Source of the DNA: Pyrobaculum arsenaticum DSM 13514
Lineage (GTDB): Archaea > Thermoproteota > Thermoprotei > Thermoproteales > Thermoproteaceae
Assembly: GCF_000016385.1 (NCBI RefSeq)
Contig: NC_009376.1
Span: 1,972,179 to 2,004,178 of the forward strand
Direction: 5' to 3'
DNA: 32,000 bases
This document shows, piece by piece, positions 4,782 through 22,647 of the stretch. The position numbers and the translations under genes are program-made. The notes under the pieces were generated by a model. The model searched no databases. It was not told the origin of the DNA and worked only from the letters and a program-made list of their open reading frames with translations. How positions within the stretch are numbered: position 1 is the stretch's first letter; the number at the start of each line of letters is the position of its first letter.

Positions 4782-5255
4782 GTGTGTCTTGAAAAGACGT
4801 GGCCCCGTGGCGGTCCCGACTGGGCCGCCGTCGGCGTCCTCGTGAGCGGCGGCCGAGTATTGATGATCCGCCGAGTTGAGCGGGAGGGAGACCCCTGGTC
4901 CGGCCAAGTGGCCTTCCCAGGCGGCAGGTGGAAGCCGGGGGAGGACCTCCTGGGCACGGCGGTTAGGGAGGTGGAGGAGGAGGTCGGGGTGAGGCCGGAG
5001 GAGCTGATGGGCGTCCTTCCGCCGCCGAGTCCGCGGAACGCCCCTTGGCTGAAGGTCGTCCCCTTTCTCTTTAGAAGGTGGTCGGGAGAAGTAAGGCCAA
5101 ATCCCACAGAGGTGAGAGAGGTACGGTGGGTCTCAAGAGAGGAGCTGACGGAGGGCGAGTGGGTAGGGCGCGAGGCCTTCTTCGCGGGGAGCTGGGTGAT
5201 TTGGGGGCTCACCTTCCGCATCCTCAAGACTCTTATCCAATGCGGGTTTTTGTAG
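4782..5255 (+). CDS. Nudix hydrolase (CoA-pyrophosphatase-like)
   Basis: Nudix box FPGGRWKPGEDLLGTAVREVEEEVGV. GTG start, with ATTTAAAAAC about 25 nt upstream. Confidence 0.8.
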   Translation: MCLEKTWPRGGPDWAAVGVLVSGGRVLMIRRVEREGDPWSGQVAFPGGRWKPGEDLLGTAVREVEEEVGVRPEELMGVLPPPSPRNAPWLKVVPFLFRRWSGEVRPNPTEVREVRWVSREELTEGEWVGREAFFAGSWVIWGLTFRILKTLIQCGFL

Positions 5256-5309
5256 CCCTACGCGCGGGCCCGCCGCCTCAAGCTTATATATTAATGTCGG
5301 GGGTTCTAC

Positions 5310-6386
5310 GTGTCTTGCGAGTACGAGGCTCTTGGCAGATACCATTTGTTTGAGGGGCCCCGGATTAAGGTTAGGGCCTCCGCTGGCCGCGCCCTAATAG
5401 AGCGGCACTACGGCGTTGCGGGACACGCCACAGTAGAGCTGTGCAAGTGGACTAAAGACGCGTTGGAGGGGGGGAAGTCGTGCTACAAGGTGAAGTTCTA
5501 CAACGCCCCCGCCGGCGGGTCGCACCGGTGCGTCGAGATGAGCCCGGTGGGCCTCGTCTGTAGCAACCGCTGCGTCTACTGCTGGCGCCCCACCGAGGAG
5601 TTCGACGTCTTCCTACTCGACGAGAGGTTCTACATGGAGCCCGAGGACATCGTCAAGGGGGTCCTCGAAGAGAGGAGGAGGCTCCTATCCGGCTACTGGG
5701 GCCACCCGCAGGGTAAGCGGCGGGTGAGGGAAGCCCTGGAGCCGACCCACTGGGCTATCTCCCTGTCGGGGGAGCCCACCATGTACCCCAAGCTTCCCCA
5801 GCTTATAAAGCTGATAAAGTCACTCCCCAGCACGAAGTCCGTCTTCCTCGTCACCAACGGCCAGCACCCCGACATGTTGAGGAGGCTGTGGGAGGAGGAC
5901 GCCCTCCCCACCCAGCTCTACCTCTCCACCAACGCGCCCAACAAGGAGCTCTACTACAAGATAAACGTCCCCGTATACAACGTCGAGAACGCTTGGGAGA
6001 AGTGGCTGGAGTCCCTCGACCTGTTAGCAAAAATCCCGACAAGGACAGTCCTCCGCATCACCCTGATCAGAAGCCTAAACTACGACGACAGGTACATACC
6101 GGAGTTCGCCCAAATTGTCAAGAGGGGGAGCCCCCACTTCGTCGAGGTGAAGAGCTACATGCACCTCGGCCACTCCACCTTCCGCCTAAAGAAGGAAGAC
6201 ATGCTAAGCCACGAAGAGGTAAAGGAGTGGTCTCACAAGCTGTTAAAAGAGCTGGAGAAGATAGGCGCCCGCTTCGTCTACATGGACGACGACGAGCCCA
6301 GCCGCATAGTGGTTCTCCAGAATATGGACAGGTATGTGGAGAGGTGGATAGTGCCTCCACAGGTGAAAATCGAAACACAGAGTTAA
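5310..6386 (+). CDS. taw1: tRNA 4-demethylwyosine synthase (radical SAM, TYW1/Taw1)
   Basis: Radical-SAM cluster motif CSNRCVYCWR. The upstream Cys-containing segment (VELCKWTKDAL..CYK) and the overall length are typical of archaeal Taw1. TTATATATTA lies 26 nt upstream of the GTG start. Confidence 0.85.
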   Translation: MSCEYEALGRYHLFEGPRIKVRASAGRALIERHYGVAGHATVELCKWTKDALEGGKSCYKVKFYNAPAGGSHRCVEMSPVGLVCSNRCVYCWRPTEEFDVFLLDERFYMEPEDIVKGVLEERRRLLSGYWGHPQGKRRVREALEPTHWAISLSGEPTMYPKLPQLIKLIKSLPSTKSVFLVTNGQHPDMLRRLWEEDALPTQLYLSTNAPNKELYYKINVPVYNVENAWEKWLESLDLLAKIPTRTVLRITLIRSLNYDDRYIPEFAQIVKRGSPHFVEVKSYMHLGHSTFRLKKEDMLSHEEVKEWSHKLLKELEKIGARFVYMDDDEPSRIVVLQNMDRYVERWIVPPQVKIETQS

Positions 6387-13944: not shown

Positions 13945-14307
13945 TTATTCGCAGAATAGGCCGTAGTCGTCGGCTAGAACCACGCGGTGTTTTAAGGCCT
14001 CGCGCCACCAAGGTTTTTCCAGAGCCTTCGCCGCCTCTTCCGGCGTCCAGCAGATGGCCTCCACCCTCGGCGGGGCGTCGAGCAACGCAACGCAACGGGT
14101 CACGAAGTCAGTGCCTCAAAACCGCTCGGATACAATTATCACGTCGATGTCGCTCCACAAATTGAAGTCGCCCCTGGCGTACGAGCCGTAGAGCACGGCT
14201 GTTAGTTTGCCCCACCTCGCCCTCAGCGCCTCCACGTACCTCTTTACTCCCTCAATTACCTCCTCCCGCTCCCGCGTCCTTTTTCTTATTATCTCCTCTA
14301 TCGACAT
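13945..14307 (-). pseudogene. Minimal nucleotidyltransferase (MNT, antitoxin-type) interrupted by an in-frame TGA
   Basis: The NTase core GSYARGD..SDIDVIIV is followed by SERF and a TGA at 14116-14118. The same frame then stays open for 56 more codons (GTDFVTRCVALLDAPPRVEAICWTPEEAAKALEKPWWREALKHRVVLADDYGLFCE) to a TAA at 13945-13947, which looks like the normal MNT C-terminal half. Confidence 0.7.
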
Positions 14308-14351
14308 GGGGAACAGCCCTTAACCCAGCCGATTACCTGCTCGGCGCACTC

Positions 14352-14714
14352 CTACGCCTTAGCCGCCTCCTCTTCCGTATACCGCTCGTAGGGGACGCCC
14401 TCGGTCAAGGCATCTGGGTACCTAGGCGTTAGGCACATCTTATCCAGATAGCCGACGCAGAACCTCAGCTCCCCGCCAGTTGTGGGGCACAGCCCAGCCA
14501 GCTCGTTAAACAGCGCAACTAAGTTGTGGCCAAACGCAGGCCGCCCTAGCGCCCGTAGCAACGCCCTAGTTGCAAACTCAGCGGCTTGTTGCGCCTTGAA
14601 GCAGGCCCATGAGTAGGACCCGATGTCCAAGTCAGCCCGTATAGACTGTAAAGTATGCTCAGCCTGCCTCATCCACCTCCAGTACTCATAGCAGACCAGC
14701 ACAATCCTTCCCAT
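14352..14714 (-). CDS. HEPN domain protein (toxin partner of MNT)
   Basis: WRWMRQAEHTLQSIRADL followed by an Rx4H motif (GRPAFGH). The start is ambiguous between 14750, 14714 and 14672. TATATAAAA at about 14722-14730 argues against 14750. Confidence 0.75.
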   Translation of the reverse strand: MGRIVLVCYEYWRWMRQAEHTLQSIRADLDIGSYSWACFKAQQAAEFATRALLRALGRPAFGHNLVALFNELAGLCPTTGGELRFCVGYLDKMCLTPRYPDALTEGVPYERYTEEEAAKA

Positions 14715-14799
14715 TTGCAGTTTTATATACAACACACGGCTGGGCTTCAACTCTTCTTGAACACGCTATGAAGAAGGCCTCGCTTCTGTGGATGTGGGG
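14665..14799. repeat. Direct repeat DR1, copy A: diverged nop2 3' end plus the real HEPN 5' end
   Basis: 14767-14799 is identical to 16753-16785 (33/33, checked base by base). Colinear blocks of weaker similarity continue leftward to about 14665: CCGTGT, TGTGCTGG and AGTACT.GAGGTGGA. Confidence 0.8.
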
Positions 14800-14810
14800 A
14801 TACACATGCA

Positions 14811-14963
14811 TTAACGTATGATATAAACTAAGAAGACAATTGCCGACGCCGTAACAGCCGCTGCAACGGCTAATTGGAGCGAGCTTTTTACAAATTTATA
14901 GACCTCGTTATATACATACGCCGCCAAACCGGCTAACACGCCGACGGCAACCACGTCAAACAC
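14811..14963 (-). CDS. Unannotated 50-aa hydrophobic peptide with two predicted TM helices
   Basis: Hand translation gives (V/M)FDVVAVGVLAGLAAYVYNEVYKFVKSSLQLAVAAAVTASAIVFLVYIIR then TAA. The GTG start lies 2 nt after the stop of the upstream ORF. It falls below the 60-aa cutoff of the ORF track. Confidence 0.3.
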   Translation of the reverse strand: MFDVVAVGVLAGLAAYVYNEVYKFVKSSLQLAVAAAVTASAIVFLVYIIR

Positions 14964-14964
14964 A

Positions 14965-15321
14965 CTATGCTATACGGGCTAATTTTATAAGCTTTAACTT
15001 ATCAAGCCTATATCCTCTTGTAGCTATGTAGTAGCAGACTTCGCACGGCATTTTGAAATCTTTGTTCACCTCAATGCCGTGTTCTTTTAATATAGCAAGA
15101 GGGCCGGCATATCTCAATGCAAGAACCAACGCGTTTCTCCTAATTCTCTTTACTATATCTACAAGCGAGTCTTGCGAGATATTGCCCACCTTAAAAAACC
15201 ACTGTGCCTCACTCTGAGTTATTGGATGGCCGCAACAATACATAGCATCACCATTAGGAAGGATGGTCAGCCTAGCCCCAGCTTTCGCCATAAAGTTTTT
15301 TGCGAATTTTTGAGCTTTCAT
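14965..15321 (-). CDS. Degenerate SPASM/twitch-like Cys-containing ORF (possible radical-SAM accessory-domain remnant)
   Basis: KAGARLTILPNGDAMYCC resembles the C-x-AG...PdGdv.pC segment of SPASM domains, but K replaces the first Cys. It has a CEVC pair but lacks the remaining Cys residues. Only about 17 codons are open upstream, so no radical-SAM core is attached. About 42% GC. Confidence 0.35.
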   Translation of the reverse strand: MKAQKFAKNFMAKAGARLTILPNGDAMYCCGHPITQSEAQWFFKVGNISQDSLVDIVKRIRRNALVLALRYAGPLAILKEHGIEVNKDFKMPCEVCYYIATRGYRLDKLKLIKLARIA

Positions 15322-15832
15322 GACGATGGCCCAGCACAGGTGGAGGAAACACAGATTTTCGCTCGTTATCCTTTACCTAATTTCCGTCGGCGTAATAGCT
15401 TTAGGGATCTTCCACTTCTATTTGCACAGCGTAAATCCTCCAAAAGAGCCTATGGCGCGCCTAGGGCCTTATCTGGTCATAGGAACGGGGCTGGCGGCGA
15501 TGGCTACTATCCCTTTGTTGGAGCCTGTCCGCGCTGTTGTGAGGCGCGGCGAGATTATCCTCAAGACTCGTTGGCTTACTAAGAGAATCACAGGCTTCAG
15601 GGTGGTGAAGAAGTTCTCCACGTCGGAGCTCTTGAACTACGTCTACATGTGCCCCGTGGGGTGGCGCCTCGACCTCTGGTCTCTTTACGGCATCTGCTCC
15701 ACTGCGTTTGGGAGGGCGGTCGCGTTTTCTACGCCTTCCTGTTCCGACGAGTGGATAGTGGTAGAGGCAGACAGCAAGCGGTATGTAATATGTTGCGAAG
15801 AGGAGGATAGGGAGATATGCGCAGGTTTATAG
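15320..15832 (+). CDS. Membrane protein with two N-terminal TM helices and a Cys-rich C-terminal domain (hypothetical)
   Basis: Hydrophobic segments FSLVILYLISVGVIALGIF and YLVIGTGLAAMATIPLL are followed by a soluble part containing 6 Cys. Overlaps the next ORF by 16 nt. Its ATG overlaps the divergent ATG of 14965..15321 (CATG). Confidence 0.5.
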   Translation: MTMAQHRWRKHRFSLVILYLISVGVIALGIFHFYLHSVNPPKEPMARLGPYLVIGTGLAAMATIPLLEPVRAVVRRGEIILKTRWLTKRITGFRVVKKFSTSELLNYVYMCPVGWRLDLWSLYGICSTAFGRAVAFSTPSCSDEWIVVEADSKRYVICCEEEDREICAGL

Positions 15833-16557
15833 CGGTGACCTTCGGCTTAGGGTGGGCTTTTCAGTTTGCCCATCCCACCTCCTACTTCTGGCTGGCCGCC
15901 GCTATGTGGGCGCCTGCACTGGGCGCGCTTGCTGAGGGGTTTAGGCCCCCGCCCCCGGCGCTGACCGCCGGGAGGAGGATAAGTTACTGGAAGTCTGTGT
16001 GGCCGATTGCGCTGTGGGTCGCCCTATTGGTGGCCTCCACGTTGCCATTTCAGCCCGTCCAGCCCCAGGCGGCGCCGAGCCACTTAATGTACTTGCTCAC
16101 AGCACCCTTTATGCCCGCAGTGGTGGCATTTATAGGCGCCTTTGGCGAGGAGTACGGCTGGCGGGGCTATTTACTGCCAGCCCTCGCCCAGAGGCTTGGC
16201 TACTTCAAGGCGTCTCTCATGGTGGGGGTTGTGTGGGGTTTTTGGCACACGCCGGCTATCGGCTATGAGTACGGCTGGTTTTGGCGCGTTGAGGGCGTGC
16301 TCCTCTTTGTCCTTCCCACTATTCTCCTCTCCCTACTCCACACAGCGGCTTATTTACAATACGGCGTATGGGGGGCCGCATTGCTACATGGGGCCGTCAA
16401 CTCGTGGGCGCCTACGTACTTTCTTCTGTATCCACAGCTCTTAGATGAGAGGTGGCTCTGGGGACCTGTAGGTCTTCAAGGCGTTGCAACCCTCATACCC
16501 GTGGCTTGGATAGTCTGGAAGATGTACGCACGCAGTGTTGACAAAACGCCGCCCTGA
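15817..16557 (+). CDS. CPBP family intramembrane glutamic endopeptidase (CAAX protease / Abi family)
   Basis: All three family motifs are present: GEEYGWRGYLLP (EExxxR), FWHTP (FxxxH) and HGAVN (HxxxN), in a polytopic membrane protein. Confidence 0.85.
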   Translation: MRRFIAVTFGLGWAFQFAHPTSYFWLAAAMWAPALGALAEGFRPPPPALTAGRRISYWKSVWPIALWVALLVASTLPFQPVQPQAAPSHLMYLLTAPFMPAVVAFIGAFGEEYGWRGYLLPALAQRLGYFKASLMVGVVWGFWHTPAIGYEYGWFWRVEGVLLFVLPTILLSLLHTAAYLQYGVWGAALLHGAVNSWAPTYFLLYPQLLDERWLWGPVGLQGVATLIPVAWIVWKMYARSVDKTPP

Positions 16558-16660
16558 CGCCCAGAATAGCGCTCACGGCGCGAGCCCCGCCGCATGTCGC
16601 GCCTCGAGGCAGGCCTAAGCGCAGGTCCTTATAATTGGCGCATGTAGGCCACGGAGTAGA

Positions 16661-16785
16661 CCCCCCGTCCACCTCTAGTACTTGTCGCGGCCCAGCACAG
16701 TTCCTCTATTTAAGACACGGGTGGCGTACGCCTATCTTTTCCTCAAGCGCGATATGAAGAAGGCCTCGCTTCTGTGGATGTGGGG
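16661..16785. repeat. Direct repeat DR1, copy B: real nop2 3' end plus a decayed HEPN 5' fragment
   Basis: The 33-nt core at 16753-16785 encodes PHIHRSEAFFI of nop2. The adjacent 16661-16752 aligns in blocks with the HEPN promoter and first codons, reading TVLGRDKY*RW against IVLVCYEYWRW. Confidence 0.8.
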
Positions 16786-17976
16786 GAAGGTTCTCCCGCC
16801 GACGCCGGGCGTGTACGACGGGGCGAGGTCAGGATGGGGCTTTTCCGCCTCTGCGCCGGCAGACGCCGCCACCTCTTCGCCTTCTTGTGGAAGGATGCTA
16901 CAGACGGCGTACACCACCTCCTCTGCCAGCGCCAATGCGTTTTTGATGAGGGCCTTCTGCACGGCGGAGTACTTAGGCGCCTCCTCGACCCGGGGGTATA
17001 TCTTTACGGCGGGCTCCTTGGTGAACGCCCCGCTGGAGGTGCAAGGCGCGTCTAGAAGCGCCTTGTCGAACTTCCTTGTCTTTAAGACCCGAGAGTCTGC
17101 CCTGACGACCTCTACAAAGTCCCCTGCTCCTAGGTTTTTCAGGAGGTGCCTCATCCTCGCAACGCGCTTCGCCGAGAGGTCCACGGCAACGATTTTGGCT
17201 CTTCCCTCCGCTAGCTGGGCTATTAGGCTGGTCTTCATCCCCGGCGCCGCGGCGAGGTCGATTATCCTGTCGCCAGGCTCTGGCCTAAGCGAAAGCACGG
17301 CGTATATTGAGGCCAGGTCTTGGGGAACGGCCACAAACCGCCTCACGGCCTCTAGGTACTGGACAGGCCTCTTAGCTGATTTAAGCAACACGGCGAAGGG
17401 AATTTTAGGATGGGGCTCCACCTCGGCCTCGGCCTCCAACAGCCTCAACGCCTTGTCCACGTCCGCCTTCAGCGTGTTTATCCTCAGCCAAATCCAGGTG
17501 TGATTCCCCGCTTCTAGCAACCTCTCCACTTCCTCCGGCGGGAAATGCGACAGCAGTGTCGACACTATGTTGGGGTGATAGCTGTACTTCACCGAGAAGT
17601 ATCTGGCGCGATCCTCCCTTAACTCCTCCAACGCCGCCATTACGTGGTCCGGCTTTGTCAGAGCCCTTTTTAACAGCCGTTTCCGCACGCTGTAAACCAT
17701 GTCTTTGTTGTAGAGGAGAGAGTCTGCCCTAAAAATAAACCACGCCTTAGCTATGGCTTTTGCGCCAGAAGAGCCGAACATCTTCGAAGCGGCGAATTGG
17801 AGAAAATAGTAATGGCGCACAGCGTCGTAGACCACGTCGTAAAATACCTTGAAGCTATCTAACTCACGCCACCCCCTCTTTACCTTTTGAAAAGCGTAGT
17901 CAAGAGTAAGACCTTTGCTTATTTCGTAGAGAACCTTGGCAGTGAAGGATATCAGCTCTCCAGGAGTCCACTTCAC
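16732..17976 (-). CDS. NOL1/NOP2/Sun family RNA cytosine-C5 methyltransferase
   Basis: SAM-binding DLAAAPGMKTS and catalytic DAPCTSSG motifs. The start is set to the in-frame GTG at 17976, which overlaps the upstream stop (GTGA). The listed ATG at 18054 would overlap the upstream gene by 82 nt. Confidence 0.9.
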   Translation of the reverse strand: MKWTPGELISFTAKVLYEISKGLTLDYAFQKVKRGWRELDSFKVFYDVVYDAVRHYYFLQFAASKMFGSSGAKAIAKAWFIFRADSLLYNKDMVYSVRKRLLKRALTKPDHVMAALEELREDRARYFSVKYSYHPNIVSTLLSHFPPEEVERLLEAGNHTWIWLRINTLKADVDKALRLLEAEAEVEPHPKIPFAVLLKSAKRPVQYLEAVRRFVAVPQDLASIYAVLSLRPEPGDRIIDLAAAPGMKTSLIAQLAEGRAKIVAVDLSAKRVARMRHLLKNLGAGDFVEVVRADSRVLKTRKFDKALLDAPCTSSGAFTKEPAVKIYPRVEEAPKYSAVQKALIKNALALAEEVVYAVCSILPQEGEEVAASAGAEAEKPHPDLAPSYTPGVGGRTFPHIHRSEAFFISRLRKR

Positions 17977-18479
17977 GTGAGAAATACCAAATCGGCCTCC
18001 AGCTTCGCCAAGTCTATAAGGGCGTAGCTCGACCTGCCGGTTAGGCAACCGCACAGCTCCCCGGGGTTCACCACCAGCGTCCTCCCCCTCCTCTCCAGCG
18101 AGGCTTGGTGGGTGTGGCCGTAGATCACCACGTCGTAGAGGTCGGACTCAGCCAACGCCCTCAGCAACACGGGCGATGTGCCGTGGTACACCGCTATTTT
18201 CCTGCCGCTGACCTCCAGCTCCGCGGCGTCGCCAGCGATTTCAACGCCGTATTTCCGCGCCGTTTCTAGAAAATAGGGTCTCTCCCCCTCGTTGTTGCCC
18301 CATACGCCAACTATCCTTACCCCCTCGCCCACCGCCTCCCTTAAAAACCTAGCGGCAAATGGCGACACCCAGTCTCCGGCATGCAGGATCAGCTTAACCC
18401 CCCTGCGCCTCGCCTCCTCACCAACCCGCCTAATAGCTATGACGTTGTCATGGCTGTCTGAAATGGCAACCACTAGCAT
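17973..18479 (-). CDS. Metallophosphoesterase, YfcE/MJ0936 family
   Basis: Motifs VVAISDSHDN, HAGDW, GNNE and GHTH. Confidence 0.85.
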   Translation of the reverse strand: MLVVAISDSHDNVIAIRRVGEEARRRGVKLILHAGDWVSPFAARFLREAVGEGVRIVGVWGNNEGERPYFLETARKYGVEIAGDAAELEVSGRKIAVYHGTSPVLLRALAESDLYDVVIYGHTHQASLERRGRTLVVNPGELCGCLTGRSSYALIDLAKLEADLVFLT

Positions 18480-18737
18480 AATGCGGCAAGTAGACTAGTT
18501 AAAAAACTCTTCTCCTGGACAGGCAGGCGCCGACGCTACGAGTAACGGGATGGGCAAGTAGCCCGCGGCGGGGACGCAATGTTGTTTAAACCTCCGCCGA
18601 GATCTCTGGCTCTATCGGCTCTTCATGTGCGCTGCGACTAGCGCGCCGCTCTTAGGGGAGTACTAGAACTCGGCGCCGTTGGCCCTAATGGTGTAGGGTT
18701 TTACCCCGAGGTCAACCGCGGGGCGCCGCCGACTGTC

Positions 18738-19277
18738 CTAGTCAACCTGTACGCCTAGAACCTTCTGGAAGAATTCTACTGCCTCCTCCCTGGTGACGAG
18801 CTGTTTTTTGCCTACTTTACTCCTCCTCCTTCTCCTCAGTTGCACCCTGAGCCCCGGCTTTGCTAGCTTCACGCAGACGTCCATGCCCCATATTCCAACA
18901 GCTGGGTCGTACTTGACGCCGGGTAGGAGGATGTGCTCCTTGATGCCGAAGCAGACGTTCCCCCTGTCGTCGAAGCTGGTCCTCTTTACGCGGTTGTTCA
19001 CCGCCTGCAACGCCCTCATTAAGAAGTTGACTGCCTGGTCTCTCCTCAGCGTGACCATCACGCCTATCGGCTCCCCCTTCCTAATGCCGAAGTCCTTAAT
19101 CGACCGCTTCGCCCTCCTCCTAGAGGGCTCTGCCCCCGTTAGTTCTTTTAACAGTTCAGCCGCCTTTTCTAGCCTCTCGCCGCCGGTCCCAACTCCGATG
19201 TTCACGACGACCTTCTCGATGAAGATCCTCTGCATTGGGTGCTGTTTTACGAGCACCAGCTCCTTCCAGCTGGGCAT
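18738..19277 (-). CDS. rpl5: 50S ribosomal protein L5 (uL5)
   Basis: RIFIEKVVVNIGVG and overall uL5 similarity. An A/T-rich box (AAAATTTTAAAAA) lies about 25 nt upstream. Confidence 0.93.
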   Translation of the reverse strand: MPSWKELVLVKQHPMQRIFIEKVVVNIGVGTGGERLEKAAELLKELTGAEPSRRRAKRSIKDFGIRKGEPIGVMVTLRRDQAVNFLMRALQAVNNRVKRTSFDDRGNVCFGIKEHILLPGVKYDPAVGIWGMDVCVKLAKPGLRVQLRRRRRSKVGKKQLVTREEAVEFFQKVLGVQVD

Positions 19278-19371
19278 AGGCGTCTAGCTTTGGCTGTTTT
19301 TAAAATTTTTAGAACACCAGCGGCACCTCTGGCCCCTTCGCCGCCACGGCCTCTGCGGGCTTGAAGAGGCG
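19203..19371. repeat. Direct repeat DR2, copy 1: diverged PAC2 3' fragment plus the real rpl5 promoter and 5' end
   Basis: 19309-19329 is identical to 20418-20438 (21/21). 19330-19371 encodes LFKPAEAVAAKGPEVPLVF*, against ILKPAEAMAPARREVPLVF* in the real gene, at about 70% nt identity. Confidence 0.8.
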
Positions 19372-20301
19372 GAACAATTAGCGGAACTGGCGAGGTAGCT
19401 TTGCGGCCTAGGTCAGTTTGTGAGACTGGGCCATAATCTAAAGCCTCACGCATAGGCCCAGGAGCACCCCTGAGATGTGCCCCCTTAGCGATATATTCAT
19501 TATACCGGGCCATGACTAGAAGTCTGTCAAGAGTCAACATCTAAGTATTGCCTCTCTTTGCCTTTCAACTAGGCGCAACCCAATTGCTTTGCCCCATAAT
19601 AAAACATTATGCCGTCTAGGTGGCTCAGCGCACCGCTGCGGCCACGAGGTTGATCCCGCGCCTCACATATGTCAAACTCTCTTTCACCTCTTCAAGACTT
19701 AGTCTCCCCTCGTGAAACCCTTCTACGTGTAGAAACCAAGCCTCCCGTGCGGCTAGGCGAAATTCTATGCCGAATTTCTTCTCCAACTTCCTAATGGCGG
19801 AGAAAAAAGTAGCGGCCCTCCACCGACCCTCTCGTTCTGCTAGCCTCGCCTCTTCGAGACCCAGATAAATCGCGGCGGCCTTAACCGCCTCCTCAAAGGC
19901 CTTATATGCCTTTTCAGAGGCCTGTACGGGATCCTCTAATTTCTCCGCCTCTTCTAAATACCGCATTGCCAACTCTAAATGGGCCTTTGCCTCTTCAGCC
20001 GGGTCTGCCCCCATGGCCTTTGATAGGGCTGAAATGATGACATATTCCACGTCTATTCCCCTCTTCCTGGCCTCTGCCATTATGTTCTCCACGTAAAGAT
20101 CTTGGTCTTTTTTAAATACTAGCGGCGCCCTTCCCAAAACCCCGGTCAAAGGCGTCGGCTAGGAACTGCTCAGGTGATGCGCGAAGGCGCTAGGCGAGTG
20201 GTCACTGCAGCCTAGCAGATGCGTTAAAAAATGTCCTCGCCCCGCCGCTCGCTGTGCGGAGATGCCGTCCTGAGGGGCGTTTGGATCGGCGGCAAATTCT
20301 G
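19372..20301. mobile_element. Accessory cassette 2 (PaREP1 cargo) inserted at the PAC2/rpl5 junction (no recombinase gene)
   Basis: Unique DNA bounded by the two DR2 copies. Contains only the PaREP1-like ORF and flanking non-coding sequence. Confidence 0.55.
19625..20149 (-). CDS. PaREP1-family protein (HEPN-related helical protein)
   Basis: AHLELAMRYLEEAEKLEDPVQASEKAYKAFEEAVKAAAIYLGLEE ... REGRWRAATFFSAIRKLEK ... AWFLHVEGFHEGRLSLEEVKESLTYV matches my recollection of the Pyrobaculum PaREP1 repeat-protein family. TTG start. Confidence 0.7.
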   Translation of the reverse strand: MTGVLGRAPLVFKKDQDLYVENIMAEARKRGIDVEYVIISALSKAMGADPAEEAKAHLELAMRYLEEAEKLEDPVQASEKAYKAFEEAVKAAAIYLGLEEARLAEREGRWRAATFFSAIRKLEKKFGIEFRLAAREAWFLHVEGFHEGRLSLEEVKESLTYVRRGINLVAAAVR

Positions 20302-20480
20302 GCACGCCGACCTTTCTAAGGACTTCCATTGGGTGCATGAGTCCTCTTCTAAACGAGGAAAACGGCCCAACCACCCGGGGACAGCTGGCGAGGCCTCTCC
20401 AATGGGTCTAAGAAAAATTAGAACACCAGCGGCACCTCGCGCCTCGCCGGCGCCATGGCCTCCGCCGGCTTTAAGATGGC
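20302..20480. repeat. Direct repeat DR2, copy 2: real PAC2 3' end plus a decayed rpl5 promoter/5' fragment
   Basis: The 21-nt core is at 20418-20438. 20302-20417 aligns colinearly with the rpl5 upstream region and first ~25 codons through the blocks TAGAC, CCAGCTG, CTCGT, GCACCCAATG and AGAAAGGTCGGCGTG. Confidence 0.75.
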
Positions 20481-21239
20481 CTCTATGTTCTTCTCGATGA
20501 GGAAGGCATACCTAGTTGCGTGCTCTTGCAACTTTGCCGTGTCTATTTGGATATCTGCGAGCTTAGCCACAGCGTTTATTAGCTTCAACGCGGCGCCTAC
20601 GTCAGGGCCGACCCGCCCGACAAGGTCGTTGAGTATAAGCATCACGTCGCGGTGGGTGGCGATTTTGCCGCTGTCTACCAGCCTCTTTATGGCGGTGAGT
20701 AGCTTAGACTCGGCGATTATGAGTGCGCCGTCTATGCTCCTGCCGAGCACTGCGTCTAGGTATGCCCCCTCGAGTCCGGTCACGGTGGCCTCTTTTATAG
20801 GCTCGAAGCCGTACTGCTTAAACTTCTCCACTAGGCCCTCCTCCGTGACGAAGTAGACGTTTTCACTTTCCTTCTCGCCGGCAGCTGGCATGGCCGATAG
20901 GCAGACCACGAGTTTTACCTTGTTTTCCTCGGCCCAATCTAGGACCTTGTGGATGAACTCAGCGTAGATCTGCGGCGGTATGGGAACGTGTTGCCTAATG
21001 GCAAGGATGCCCGCCTCTTTCGAGTAGAACAGTCTGTGAGGCAGTTTCGCCGCGCCGTTGACGACGGCGATTACTGGAGGCATCTCCGTGATTTTAATTG
21101 CCCCTATCTCCTCCATCTTAAGCGCATCTATTAGATACTCAACTGCTATGACACCTGCCAGCGAGGGCTCGGGGCAAGCCATCACGAGGATGTTCTTTTT
21201 GTCCCGCGGCAGTCCGCTGATCTTTACTTCGAGACGCAT
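20418..21239 (-). CDS. PAC2 family (proteasome assembly chaperone-like) protein
   Basis: N-terminal pattern NILVMACPEPSLAGVIAVEYLIDAL ... LPHRLFY and a length of about 270 aa resemble archaeal PAC2/PbaA-PbaB-like proteins. The call is from resemblance only. Confidence 0.65.
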   Translation of the reverse strand: MRLEVKISGLPRDKKNILVMACPEPSLAGVIAVEYLIDALKMEEIGAIKITEMPPVIAVVNGAAKLPHRLFYSKEAGILAIRQHVPIPPQIYAEFIHKVLDWAEENKVKLVVCLSAMPAAGEKESENVYFVTEEGLVEKFKQYGFEPIKEATVTGLEGAYLDAVLGRSIDGALIIAESKLLTAIKRLVDSGKIATHRDVMLILNDLVGRVGPDVGAALKLINAVAKLADIQIDTAKLQEHATRYAFLIEKNIEAILKPAEAMAPARREVPLVF

Positions 21240-21313
21240 GTGCCTGGCTACACATCATGTATTAAATATTTCTGCCGTTGTCTAAATTTTTAAAGCTCTT
21301 CACAGTACGCGCC

Positions 21314-21910
21314 ATGGGTAAGGCGGTTGCTTTCCACGGATACAGAAGCTCCCCGGAAAACATCGGCTGGCTTATAGCCCCGCTCCGCGAGGCGGGGTTC
21401 AACGTCGTGATGCCGTTTATTAGAGATGTGGATGACGGCTACGAGGAGGGGCTGAAGGAGCTACCTGCGGACGTGGTGGCGGGCCACAGCATGGGGGGCA
21501 CAGTGGCGCTCCTACTGGCGGCCCGGAACCCCGGCAGTGTTAAATGTGTAATTGCGGTGGCTTCCCCCGTCGATAGGAGGTTACAACTGCAGTACCTGCT
21601 TCAGTCGGAGGATCCTTACCTGAAAAAGTTGGCTAACCAACTCGCCTCCCTTGGAAATAAGCTGGAGCAGACGTCACCCTCCCGCTTTATTGGCAACGGG
21701 ATGCCGCCTGTGCTCTACATAAGAGGCTCCGAGGATCGGGTCGTGCCCAGGACCCACGTCGACATCCTCGCCGGGCTGTCAGACCGCTTTAACTTCCCCC
21801 TCGAGGTCGTTGAGATAGAGGGCATGGCGCATAGCCCACAGAGAGAGGACCACGTGGCCGCCGTTGCTGATGCGGTGAAAAAGTTTGTGGCAAAGTACTG
21901 CGCCCCCTAG
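21314..21910 (+). CDS. Alpha/beta hydrolase
   Basis: Nucleophile elbow GHSMGG and a late His (GMAHSP). ATG 21314 is preferred over TTG 21278 because AAATTTTTAAAG sits about 20-25 nt upstream of it. Confidence 0.75.
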   Translation: MGKAVAFHGYRSSPENIGWLIAPLREAGFNVVMPFIRDVDDGYEEGLKELPADVVAGHSMGGTVALLLAARNPGSVKCVIAVASPVDRRLQLQYLLQSEDPYLKKLANQLASLGNKLEQTSPSRFIGNGMPPVLYIRGSEDRVVPRTHVDILAGLSDRFNFPLEVVEIEGMAHSPQREDHVAAVADAVKKFVAKYCAP

Positions 21911-22647
21911 CCTAGTTTAGGCAGGGCGCCCTTTGCGAATAGCTTCGAGAGTGTTGATTTGTCGACTTTGTATATGTGGTGGGCGACCTCCGCTATTAGG
22001 CGGTCGCTGGGTTTGCACTGCTGGAAGCCCATCTTGAGGCAGTAGGTGTATTTCAGGATTTTTAAACTGTCGGCGCTCCTTATTTTCCCCAGCGCTATCT
22101 CCTCTGCTATTTTATACGCGCTGTAGAACGCGGCGTAGTTCACGAGCCGCTCGGCGAGGCTTGGGTAGACTACTTCGTATGTCTTGATCGCCTTTACTAG
22201 GAGCATCTCTGGGTAGTAGCCGAGTATTGTCCCTGTAAAGACCAGCCTTAGCACTCTGAAAACCTTGTCTTCTTCTGACTTGCCTTTTATCTCGTCCGTC
22301 TTCCGCCTTAGGGACTCCGCTGTTTCCTGGGTGACAACTTCGCCTACGTTGCGGATAATCTCGACGGCCTCTAGGCTTCTGTTTTCTATGTAGAAAACAT
22401 TGTCGAAGTCTCCTGGGGCTAATATCCCAGTTCCGTAAACGCCGACAAGGTAGACCGTTGCGACCTCCTTGTCGTAGACTCCTTCTTTGGAAAGGCCGCG
22501 GAAAGGCTCTATCCTTTTTGATTTGTATATCTCCTGCAACTCAGCCACTAGGGCGGAGCGGGAGGTTATGAACCCGTTGAGAACCCTCTCTAGGAGGATG
22601 AGGGCGGCTTCGATCCTATCCTTGTGTAGCTGTTTTGCCGTCTCCAT
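21907..22647 (-). CDS. Conserved hypothetical protein
   Basis: 246-aa ORF in an operon-like array downstream of rpl10e, with a 32-nt overlap. Normal composition. No motif recognised. Confidence 0.6.
   Translation of the reverse strand: METAKQLHKDRIEAALILLERVLNGFITSRSALVAELQEIYKSKRIEPFRGLSKEGVYDKEVATVYLVGVYGTGILAPGDFDNVFYIENRSLEAVEIIRNVGEVVTQETAESLRRKTDEIKGKSEEDKVFRVLRLVFTGTILGYYPEMLLVKAIKTYEVVYPSLAERLVNYAAFYSAYKIAEEIALGKIRSADSLKILKYTYCLKMGFQQCKPSDRLIAEVAHHIYKVDKSTLSKLFAKGALPKLG

Follow-up and report, generated by a model that had tools for sequence, protein, structure and literature searches.

A PaREP1 gene between duplicated halves of a PAC2/rpl5 junction in Pyrobaculum arsenaticum, best read as an ancient scar of recombinational gene gain

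In a 32,000-nucleotide stretch of the genome of Pyrobaculum arsenaticum DSM 13514 (NC_009376.1, positions 1,972,179 to 2,004,178; the whole stretch is called the window below, and position 1 is its first nucleotide), a single PaREP1 gene lies between a PAC2-family gene and rpl5 and is bracketed by two copies of the junction of these genes. The arrangement resembles Campbell-type insertion-duplication, in which a homologous fragment is doubled on both sides of an insert that brings no recombinase of its own and, when the fragment spans a gene junction, the outer genes remain intact and the inner ones are truncated. Insertion-duplication of this type is known mainly from the laboratory and from plasmids. 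The window locus differs in that no circle or donor replicon is seen, in that the insert appears to consist of relics of the same junction from a relative, and in the age of the event, given that the copies are now at 55-83% identity.

Similar scars are left by homology-facilitated illegitimate recombination (HFIR) in bacterial Rhs, contact-dependent inhibition (CDI) and type VI secretion system (T6SS) loci, where homeologous DNA enters with an anchor on one side and takes the place of the resident gene end, the remnant persists, and repetition of the process produces nested relics (PMC5361080). Those loci concern variable toxin 3' ends and immunity genes in bacteria, whereas in the window the duplication takes in the 3' end of the first gene as well as the 5' end of its neighbour, the flanking genes are housekeeping genes of a crenarchaeon, and the gene gained is of a HEPN family. 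Archaeal elements with tyrosine integrases, of the SSV and pNOB8 types, also generate direct repeats that double the 3' end of the target, with a perfect core and diverged arms. Unlike them, the window has neither an integrase nor a split integrase and no tRNA target, the cargo is one small gene, the orthologous copies lack repeats, and no excised or empty forms are seen. Transposons and miniature inverted-repeat transposable elements (MITEs) likewise place an insert between direct repeats of target sequence, but here the duplication measures ~60-170 nt, against their 2-15 nt, there is neither a transposase nor any terminal inverted repeat, and the boundaries vary by context. The gene itself is a clear member of the PaREP1/PaREP8 family, which is included in the HEPN-T clade (PMC3710099) and is expanded and patchy in Thermoproteales; PaREP genes have been tied to the variable regions between P. 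oguniense and P. arsenaticum (PMC3558965). The window copy differs from the family in standing alone between two housekeeping genes: neither a tandem PaREP array nor an operon with an adjoining MNT or restriction endonuclease (REase) gene, the contexts given in PMC3710099, was found, and its neighbours are PAC2 and rpl5 only.

The locus is best read as an ordinary PaREP1 gene within a fixed, ancient scar, left when recombination brought the gene in, and not as a new kind of mobile element. An earlier account of the window, made from its letters alone (the sequence-only reading), had described a cassette inserted at the PAC2/rpl5 junction and had proposed looking at the adjacency of the two genes in related genomes. 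They are directly adjacent in eight related Pyrobaculum lineages, with a gap of 33-52 nt in which the PAC2 stop is followed directly by a TATA box (loci L002, L006, L007, L008, the aerophilum-like L026-L031, and L032 from P. ferrireducens). L026-L031 and L032 represent the two nearest outgroups; in a neighbour-joining tree of 834 concatenated amino acids, the window clusters with L026 and L032, to the exclusion of L004. Because the lineages with adjacent genes include these outgroups, the 1.1-kb block in the window is an insertion specific to the P. arsenaticum/oguniense clade. The window can itself be assigned to that clade by its 97.6% identity to P. oguniense TE7 (L001) across the 2.5 kb from PAC2 to rpl5, and several contigs from metagenome-assembled genomes (MAGs) and from Logan are 99.7-100% identical to it. 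The PAC2 protein is 99% identical to that of P. oguniense TE7 and is encoded unchanged on 23 public contigs; the insert is present in all 23 of these, and in P. oguniense TE7 as well.

From PAC2 to rpl5, the locus is composed of the following features.

20418..21239, minus strand: functional PAC2-family gene (proteasome assembly chaperone-like; Pfam PF09754, E=3e-31)
20418-20480, minus strand: tail_A with core_A, the last 63 nt of functional PAC2
20418..20438, minus strand: core copy A, encoding EVPLVF and the stop of the real PAC2; invariant within the clade
20302..20417, minus strand: s1a, probable and heavily decayed copy of the rpl5 TATA region and first ~25 codons, immediately following the PAC2 stop in the manner of an empty junction
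20112..20235, minus strand: s1b, or tail_C, putative third PAC2 3' end, decayed and at least ~120 nt long; upstream limit uncertain (20235-20301)
19625..20092, minus strand: PaREP1 (HEPN-T clade; PF05942, E=5.8e-26), with its own TATA box
19557..19606, minus strand: putative rpl5 relic (TATA box and start), immediately past the ancestral PaREP1 stop
19372..19556, no strand: s2b, filler DNA that is neither coding nor a structured RNA
19309..19371, minus strand: tail_B with core_B, a well preserved pseudo-copy of the last 20 PAC2 codons (LFKPAEAVAAKGPEVPLVF) and the stop
19278..19308, minus strand: functional rpl5 promoter region, with the TATA box AAATTTTAAAAA ~20 nt 5' of the ATG
18738..19277, minus strand: functional rpl5, the gene for ribosomal protein L5 (Pfam PF00281 and PF00673)

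The PAC2 half of the duplication is the more conspicuous. The 21-nt core TTAGAACACCAGCGGCACCTC occurs at 19309-19329 and 20418-20438 and nowhere else in the whole window, even with up to 3 mismatches allowed, and shuffled sequences predict 0 further copies; the claim of identical 21-mers that encode EVPLVF and the PAC2 stop on the minus strand is thus confirmed, as a unique pair. The direct repeat extends beyond the core to 59 nt at 83% identity (repeat family D1). The 42 nt past the core had been put at about 70% identity and measure 69% (LFKPAEAVAAKGP versus ILKPAEAMAPARR), but the cassette, first given as 0.9 kb, is longer, with 1,088 nt between the cores (1,109 nt from start to start). Local alignment of the PAC2 side gives z=7.9, with 0/2000 shuffles scoring as high, and an nhmmer DNA profile of PAC2 3' ends, built from nine other lineages and none of the window's own species, finds 19309-19368 with E=4.3e-7. 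Tail_B matches tail_A at 49 of 60 nt and the tail of L026 at the same number. Together with core_B it borders on the rpl5 TATA box in precisely the way seen for the real PAC2 end at empty junctions, such that the layout next to rpl5 (EVPLVF, stop, TAA, AAATTTTAAAAA, ATG) is the ancestral one; the rpl5 promoter layout is also that of the empty junctions in L006, L007, L008, L026 and L032.

The reciprocal half, at 20302-20417 next to PAC2, is a probable rpl5-5' copy. The blocks said to be colinear with the rpl5 region at 19203-19308 are present, but the similarity is weak: 12/2000 shuffles score as high in a plain local alignment, and comparison to the best of seven rpl5 references gives p=0.065. 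Alignment anchored at the core, using unbiased segments of 100-150 nt and a null of random genomic segments, gives p=0.003-0.01, and within the boundaries that had originally been drawn for the copy only 0-3/3000 controls do as well. The segment carries ~13 gap events per 100 nt, and 5.2% of its sites are variable within the clade.

The DNA between the repeats had been taken to carry a single accessory gene. PaREP1 is indeed the sole conserved open reading frame (ORF), but the ~120 nt upstream and ~50 nt downstream of it appear to be PAC2 and rpl5 relics. The stop of the tail_C relic (20112-20114) lies within the PaREP1 TATA box (20108-20118), and the functional PAC2 stop abuts that box in L004. 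When the 5' flank of PaREP1 is aligned with that of L004, which is a functional PAC2 tail and stop, the score is equalled in 1/2000 controls at 60 nt and 2/2000 at 100 nt; with an anchor chosen post hoc, tail_C aligns to several PAC2 3' ends at z=3.4-4.8 and 0-1/2000 at 120 nt. The 3' flank, aligned with the rpl5 TATA box and first codons of L004, gives 0/2000 at 60 nt and 3/2000 at 100 nt. This rpl5 relic reaches only ~20 nt into rpl5. Its start, GCGCCTAGTTGAAAG (19576-19561), is closer to ATGCCTAGTTGGAAAG of L004 than to the window's own ATGCCCAGCTGGAAGG, and its start codons are matched better by CCTAGTTG of L004 than by CCCAGCTG of the window. The filler s2b has no similarity to rpl5, to 15 related loci, to the rest of the window or to phage and plasmid collections.

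Several other identities for the spacer DNA were rejected. The segment 19372-19556 was considered as decayed rpl5 coding sequence and shows no similarity to rpl5. Structured or small RNA was considered for the spacers; there is no Rfam match (E<=1, 14000-22000) and no C/D-box pattern, and the fold z-scores are -0.12 (s2b) and -1.68. The small ORFs 19247-19540 and 20159-20374 were considered as coding; one is broken by a frameshift in P. oguniense, and all differences in the other are protein-changing.

The order of the locus is therefore PAC2 with tail_A and core, pseudo-TATA and pseudo-rpl5 5' end, pseudo-PAC2 3' end (tail_C), and TATA box with PaREP1, followed by pseudo-TATA and pseudo-rpl5 start, filler, pseudo-PAC2 tail_B with core, and TATA box with rpl5. 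Judged from the sequence, these are three junction units, of which the outer two are empty-like and the middle one occupied-like. A target segment stands on both sides, and intact outer genes are combined with truncated inner copies, as in a scar of insertion-duplication or HFIR, with the rpl5 half the weaker. That each real gene keeps an intact junction half, with diverged inner halves, was correctly seen at the outset, and the inner halves are pseudo-copies. The anchored alignments (p ~0.001 or less) further suggest a relative's homologous or homeologous DNA as the source of the insert.

The mechanism favoured here, at a probability of about 45%, is integration of such a fragment as a circular intermediate, through a single crossover of Campbell type, or by an equivalent re-entry of the template. 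In the ancestral state, as shown by the empty junctions, the PAC2 stop, the rpl5 TATA box and rpl5 lie within ~35 nt. In some Pyrobaculum lineage PaREP1 came to sit exactly between the PAC2 stop and the rpl5 TATA box, and this occupied state is kept in L004/L005. A fragment of an occupied junction would then have passed from a relative to the ancestor of the arsenaticum/oguniense clade and been integrated into the empty junction by host recombination. The fragment would have comprised ~120-190 nt of the PAC2 3' end, PaREP1, the rpl5 TATA box and start, and ~185 nt of filler, and its integration would have duplicated ~170 nt of target, from PAC2 -60 to rpl5 ~+100. The insertion would have survived because the junction was duplicated, and the real genes would keep intact halves because only an insertion that left a complete PAC2 3' end and a complete rpl5 promoter could survive. 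The inner copies would have decayed later, except for the 63-nt PAC2 tail 5' of the rpl5 TATA box. PaREP1 itself would have had no role in the insertion.

The perfect identity of the two cores does not require a crossover or attachment site, because copy A is held by the function of the PAC2 protein and copy B lies in an invariant stretch 5' of rpl5. The 44 PAC2 clusters compared share a conserved C-terminus, E[VI]P[LV][VI]F, behind a hypervariable linker. In ten clade sequences, the 94 nt at 19278-19371 (promoter, core_B and tail_B) have 0 variable sites, while the other non-coding relic DNA has 29 in 534 nt (5.4%), such that 5.1 would be expected (P~0.006). For the 63-nt PAC2 remnant taken alone, the invariance has P~0.03. 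The remnant may have been recruited as an element 5' of the rpl5 promoter.

A number of observations weigh against a single event. The origin of the 185-nt filler and the circle's gain of target homology are unexplained by a single-crossover model. Tail_B has at most 1 indel in 63 nt, and the other three relics are equally degraded, with ~12 gap events per 100 nt; a single event therefore requires selection on tail_B, for which the support is modest (P=0.03), and L004 indicates that rpl5 can be expressed without an upstream PAC2 tail. When L026 is used as outgroup, functional tail_A has changed more than pseudo tail_B (17 versus 11 differences in 60 nt), a polarity for which a two-step history or a foreign allele is at least as good an account. 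Both tail_C and s1a come from anchored alignments and were missed by the nhmmer PAC2-3' and rpl5-5' profiles, respectively. No circular form, empty allele or donor was seen, the look-up by exact PAC2 protein having returned occupied loci only, and the JGI metagenome contigs yielded 0 exact matches to the core. Two histories fit: either tail_B is constrained and the event was single, or tail_B is younger, from an aerophilum-like allele, and the displacement had two steps.

The second of these histories, doubtful but the strongest competitor, would consist of two successive HFIR displacements, each anchored in rpl5 or further downstream. In the first, an occupied-junction fragment would have pushed the resident rpl5 5' end upstream, creating the joint between s1a and tail_C. 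In the second, an aerophilum-like empty-junction fragment, bearing filler, tail_B, TATA box and rpl5, would have displaced the rpl5 start that was functional at that time, leaving the relic at 19557-19606 and making tail_B the youngest relic. The order of decay fits at least as well as under a single event, since s1a and tail_C are equally and heavily decayed and tail_B is nearly intact. Tail_B (LFKPAEAVAA..) is also nearer than tail_A to the aerophilum-like and ferrireducens PAC2 tails (P0073, LFKPVEAVAAQRREVPLVF; LFKPVEAVAA..), and the divergence between tails A and B is of the same order as that between species. HFIR with orphaned gene ends is documented in bacterial Rhs and T6SS loci (PMC5361080). 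This history, however, needs two rare events at one junction, and more for the second cassette of the same architecture described below. Sliding-window identity gave no convincing mosaic signal in PAC2 or rpl5, the lone hint being that the first 90 nt of rpl5 are 88%, rather than ~80%, identical to L002, and no donor lineage can be identified among the 44 PAC2 clusters, none of which contains either tail exactly. We know of no demonstration of HFIR in Thermoproteales.

It is improbable that PaREP1 was inherited vertically at the junction, as in L004, and lost in the sister lineages, with s1 and s2 arising by local tandem duplication (unequal or slipped recombination of a PAC2-3'/rpl5-5' segment) and later decay. 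Both inner joints are of the rpl5 5'/PAC2 3' type that a tandem duplication yields, and the divergence of PaREP1 between the window and L004 (75.6% nucleotide identity) is near that of the host genes (77-79%). Such an origin in place needs precise loss of PaREP1 in at least three lineages, among them both nearest outgroups, and leaves the 185-nt filler unexplained. Furthermore, the outer units are empty-like, with the stop followed by the TATA box, and duplication of an occupied junction does not yield them.

The Pfam match of PaREP1 (residues 56-164) scores 91.1 bits against a gathering cut-off of 24.4, homologs are annotated as PaREP1 family proteins, and the start is GTG 20092 or ATG 20080. 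In a three-way alignment, the stop (TGA, 19625-19627) lies 18 nt ahead of the ancestral stop at 19607-19609 that is used in L004 and L016; the old stop and the sequence beyond it remain recognisable. The ortholog group consists of P0001, P0003 and P0002 (99%, 81% and 79% amino acid identity), and the next paralogs are at 52% or less. Between the window and L004, the protein identity (79%) exceeds the nucleotide identity (75.6%), and the two values are consistent with a functional gene. The gene is a standalone one of HEPN-T type, and its product is predicted to be an RNase-like defence or toxin protein.

PaREP1 genes are not generally found between duplicated junctions. In L004/L005, P0002 also lies between PAC2 and rpl5, 28 nt past the PAC2 stop and 31 nt ahead of the rpl5 ATG, with no flanking repeat at the locus, an arrangement that the sequence-only reading had said would count against its cassette. 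P0003 (L016, on eight contigs) lies between the genes for aconitase and triose-phosphate isomerase (TIM), a site without direct repeats or junction duplication, and the 52% paralogs (L033/L034) lie in arrays with PIN-CcdA genes in which there are no host-junction repeats. The suggestion that other PaREP1 copies might be bracketed by duplicated host junctions therefore fails at L004/L005, at L016 and at L033/L034. Given that orthologs and paralogs sit without repeats, duplicated junctions are not a hallmark of PaREP1 cassettes. The DNA common to the three ortholog contexts is the ORF and short flanks only. The L033 (3001-6195) and L034 (3001-6221) arrays each contain three PaREP1 genes and adjoin SNZ/SNO, the genes for pyridoxal synthase; a PIN-CcdA toxin-antitoxin pair separates two of the PaREP1 genes, which are ~80% identical and 1,776 nt apart.

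It is very improbable that the insert is a non-autonomous site-specific element whose core is the attachment (att) site, forming attL and attR, recognised by an integrase whose gene lies elsewhere, and with an attP imitating the host junction (predicting an empty junction of tail_A, core and AAATTTTAAAAACAG and a circle junction of tail_B, core and TTTTTCTTAGACC): the 21-nt direct repeat is perfect and identity drops sharply on both sides, like integrative elements the insert rebuilds the target gene's 3' end, and the second insertion in the window has a 33-nt perfect block, but no integrase is found in the insert or among the 30 ORFs of the 32 kb, the target is not a tRNA gene (ARAGORN finds none in the window), the orthologous PaREP1 genes at the same junction in L004/L005 and at another site in L016 have no att repeats, the two window repeats are unrelated in sequence, the 23 contigs include no empty allele, nothing matches an archaeal virus or plasmid, and the perfect core is explained by protein conservation and the invariant stretch 5' of rpl5. 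As for transposition, no transposase domain occurs among the 30 window ORFs, there are no terminal inverted repeats (the lone inverted pair near an end sits within the PaREP1 ORF and is at chance level), and the flanking duplication is at least 59 nt, where 2-15 bp would be expected of a transposon target-site duplication.

A second junction duplication, to which the sequence-only reading had alluded, is borne out ~2.5 kb from the PaREP1 locus (14764/16750); it is the stronger of the two and solid on both sides. Its features and the adjoining genes are as follows.

17973-18479, minus strand: metallophosphoesterase gene, overlapping rsmB
16732-18054, minus strand: rsmB
16668..16785, minus strand: upstream copy, with the real rsmB 3' end (16750-16785; stop 16732) and then a pseudo HEPN 5' end (16668-16699)
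14672..14799, minus strand: downstream copy, with a pseudo rsmB tail (14764-14799) and then the real HEPN-gene promoter and 5' end (ATG 14714)

The duplication is ~120 nt and two-sided. The rsmB-tail repeat is 36 nt at 97% identity, of which 33 nt are exact (repeat family D7), and on the HEPN side the real 14672-14703 and the pseudo 16668-16699, which has an in-frame TAG, align with a local score of 34 that 0/2000 shuffles reach. The insert of 1.87 kb contains a SPASM-like ORF (14965-15321), an ORF of unknown type (15320-15832) and a CAAX-protease ORF (15817-16557). P. oguniense has the duplication as well; there decay has proceeded independently, and there is a hint of conversion between the copies. 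At 16732-16760, compared to L001 at 14480-14507 and ~17440-17480, the rsmB tail differs from that of P. oguniense by a cluster of mostly synonymous changes (TCGCGCTTGAGG versus GCGCGTCTCAGG), and the P. oguniense pseudo-copy matches its own real copy at that cluster, which suggests gene conversion between the copies or an imported allele.

A search of ~370 kb of related loci for exact direct repeats of at least 19 nt at a spacing of 150-10,000 nt returned these two junctions and one unrelated case. The repeats of the two window junctions share no sequence. Because the same architecture recurs with unrelated sequences, a general recombinational process is more likely than a sequence-specific one. 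The unrelated case is a perfect 127-nt direct repeat in Thermoproteus sp. CP80 (L014 2730-2856 and 3241-3367, 511 nt apart), which could be a tandem duplication or an assembly artefact.

Read as the scar of an integrated fragment, the locus is a stepwise and readable record of gene gain in a compact archaeal genome, between essential genes with overlapping signals, and the PAC2/rpl5 junction is a recurrent site of gene gain. The relics point to exchange of chromosomal fragments and host recombination, and not to transposases or integrases, as a route by which PaREP and HEPN genes spread in Pyrobaculum. The locus also carries a warning for annotation: a perfect direct repeat at the end of a gene need not be an att site. 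An unlikely and more far-reaching proposal is that Pyrobaculum has recombinase-free, junction-hitchhiking cassettes, in which small accessory genes, here PaREP1 of the HEPN type, move from lineage to lineage with pieces of the essential-gene junction that they last occupied, and that the 63-nt PAC2 remnant has been co-opted for the rpl5 promoter. If so, the homology carried along would let host recombination re-insert a circle at the same junction, thereby duplicating it, and this would account for the nested relics, for PAC2/rpl5 junctions being occupied in lineages that are not sisters, and for a second, identically built insertion ~2.5 kb away.

The remainder of the 32 kb encodes housekeeping functions. 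Elsewhere in the family, another Thermoproteaceae MAG (L015 8700-10258) has an unrelated ORF of 488 amino acids, on the opposite strand, in the PAC2/rpl5 junction, with no flanking repeats. In the Thermoproteus loci L009-L014, rpl5 is convergent with PAC2 rather than co-directional, and in L012 and L013 there are 2-5 kb between the two genes. In L017/L036 (L017 ~5100-5660; the MAGs are 99.7% identical), rsmB is called ~550 nt downstream of the metallophosphoesterase gene, from which it is separated by an antisense ORF of 52 amino acids, whereas the window counterpart, 17973-18054, is the overlap of the two genes. This spacing could reflect a gene-calling difference, a frameshift or a real indel.

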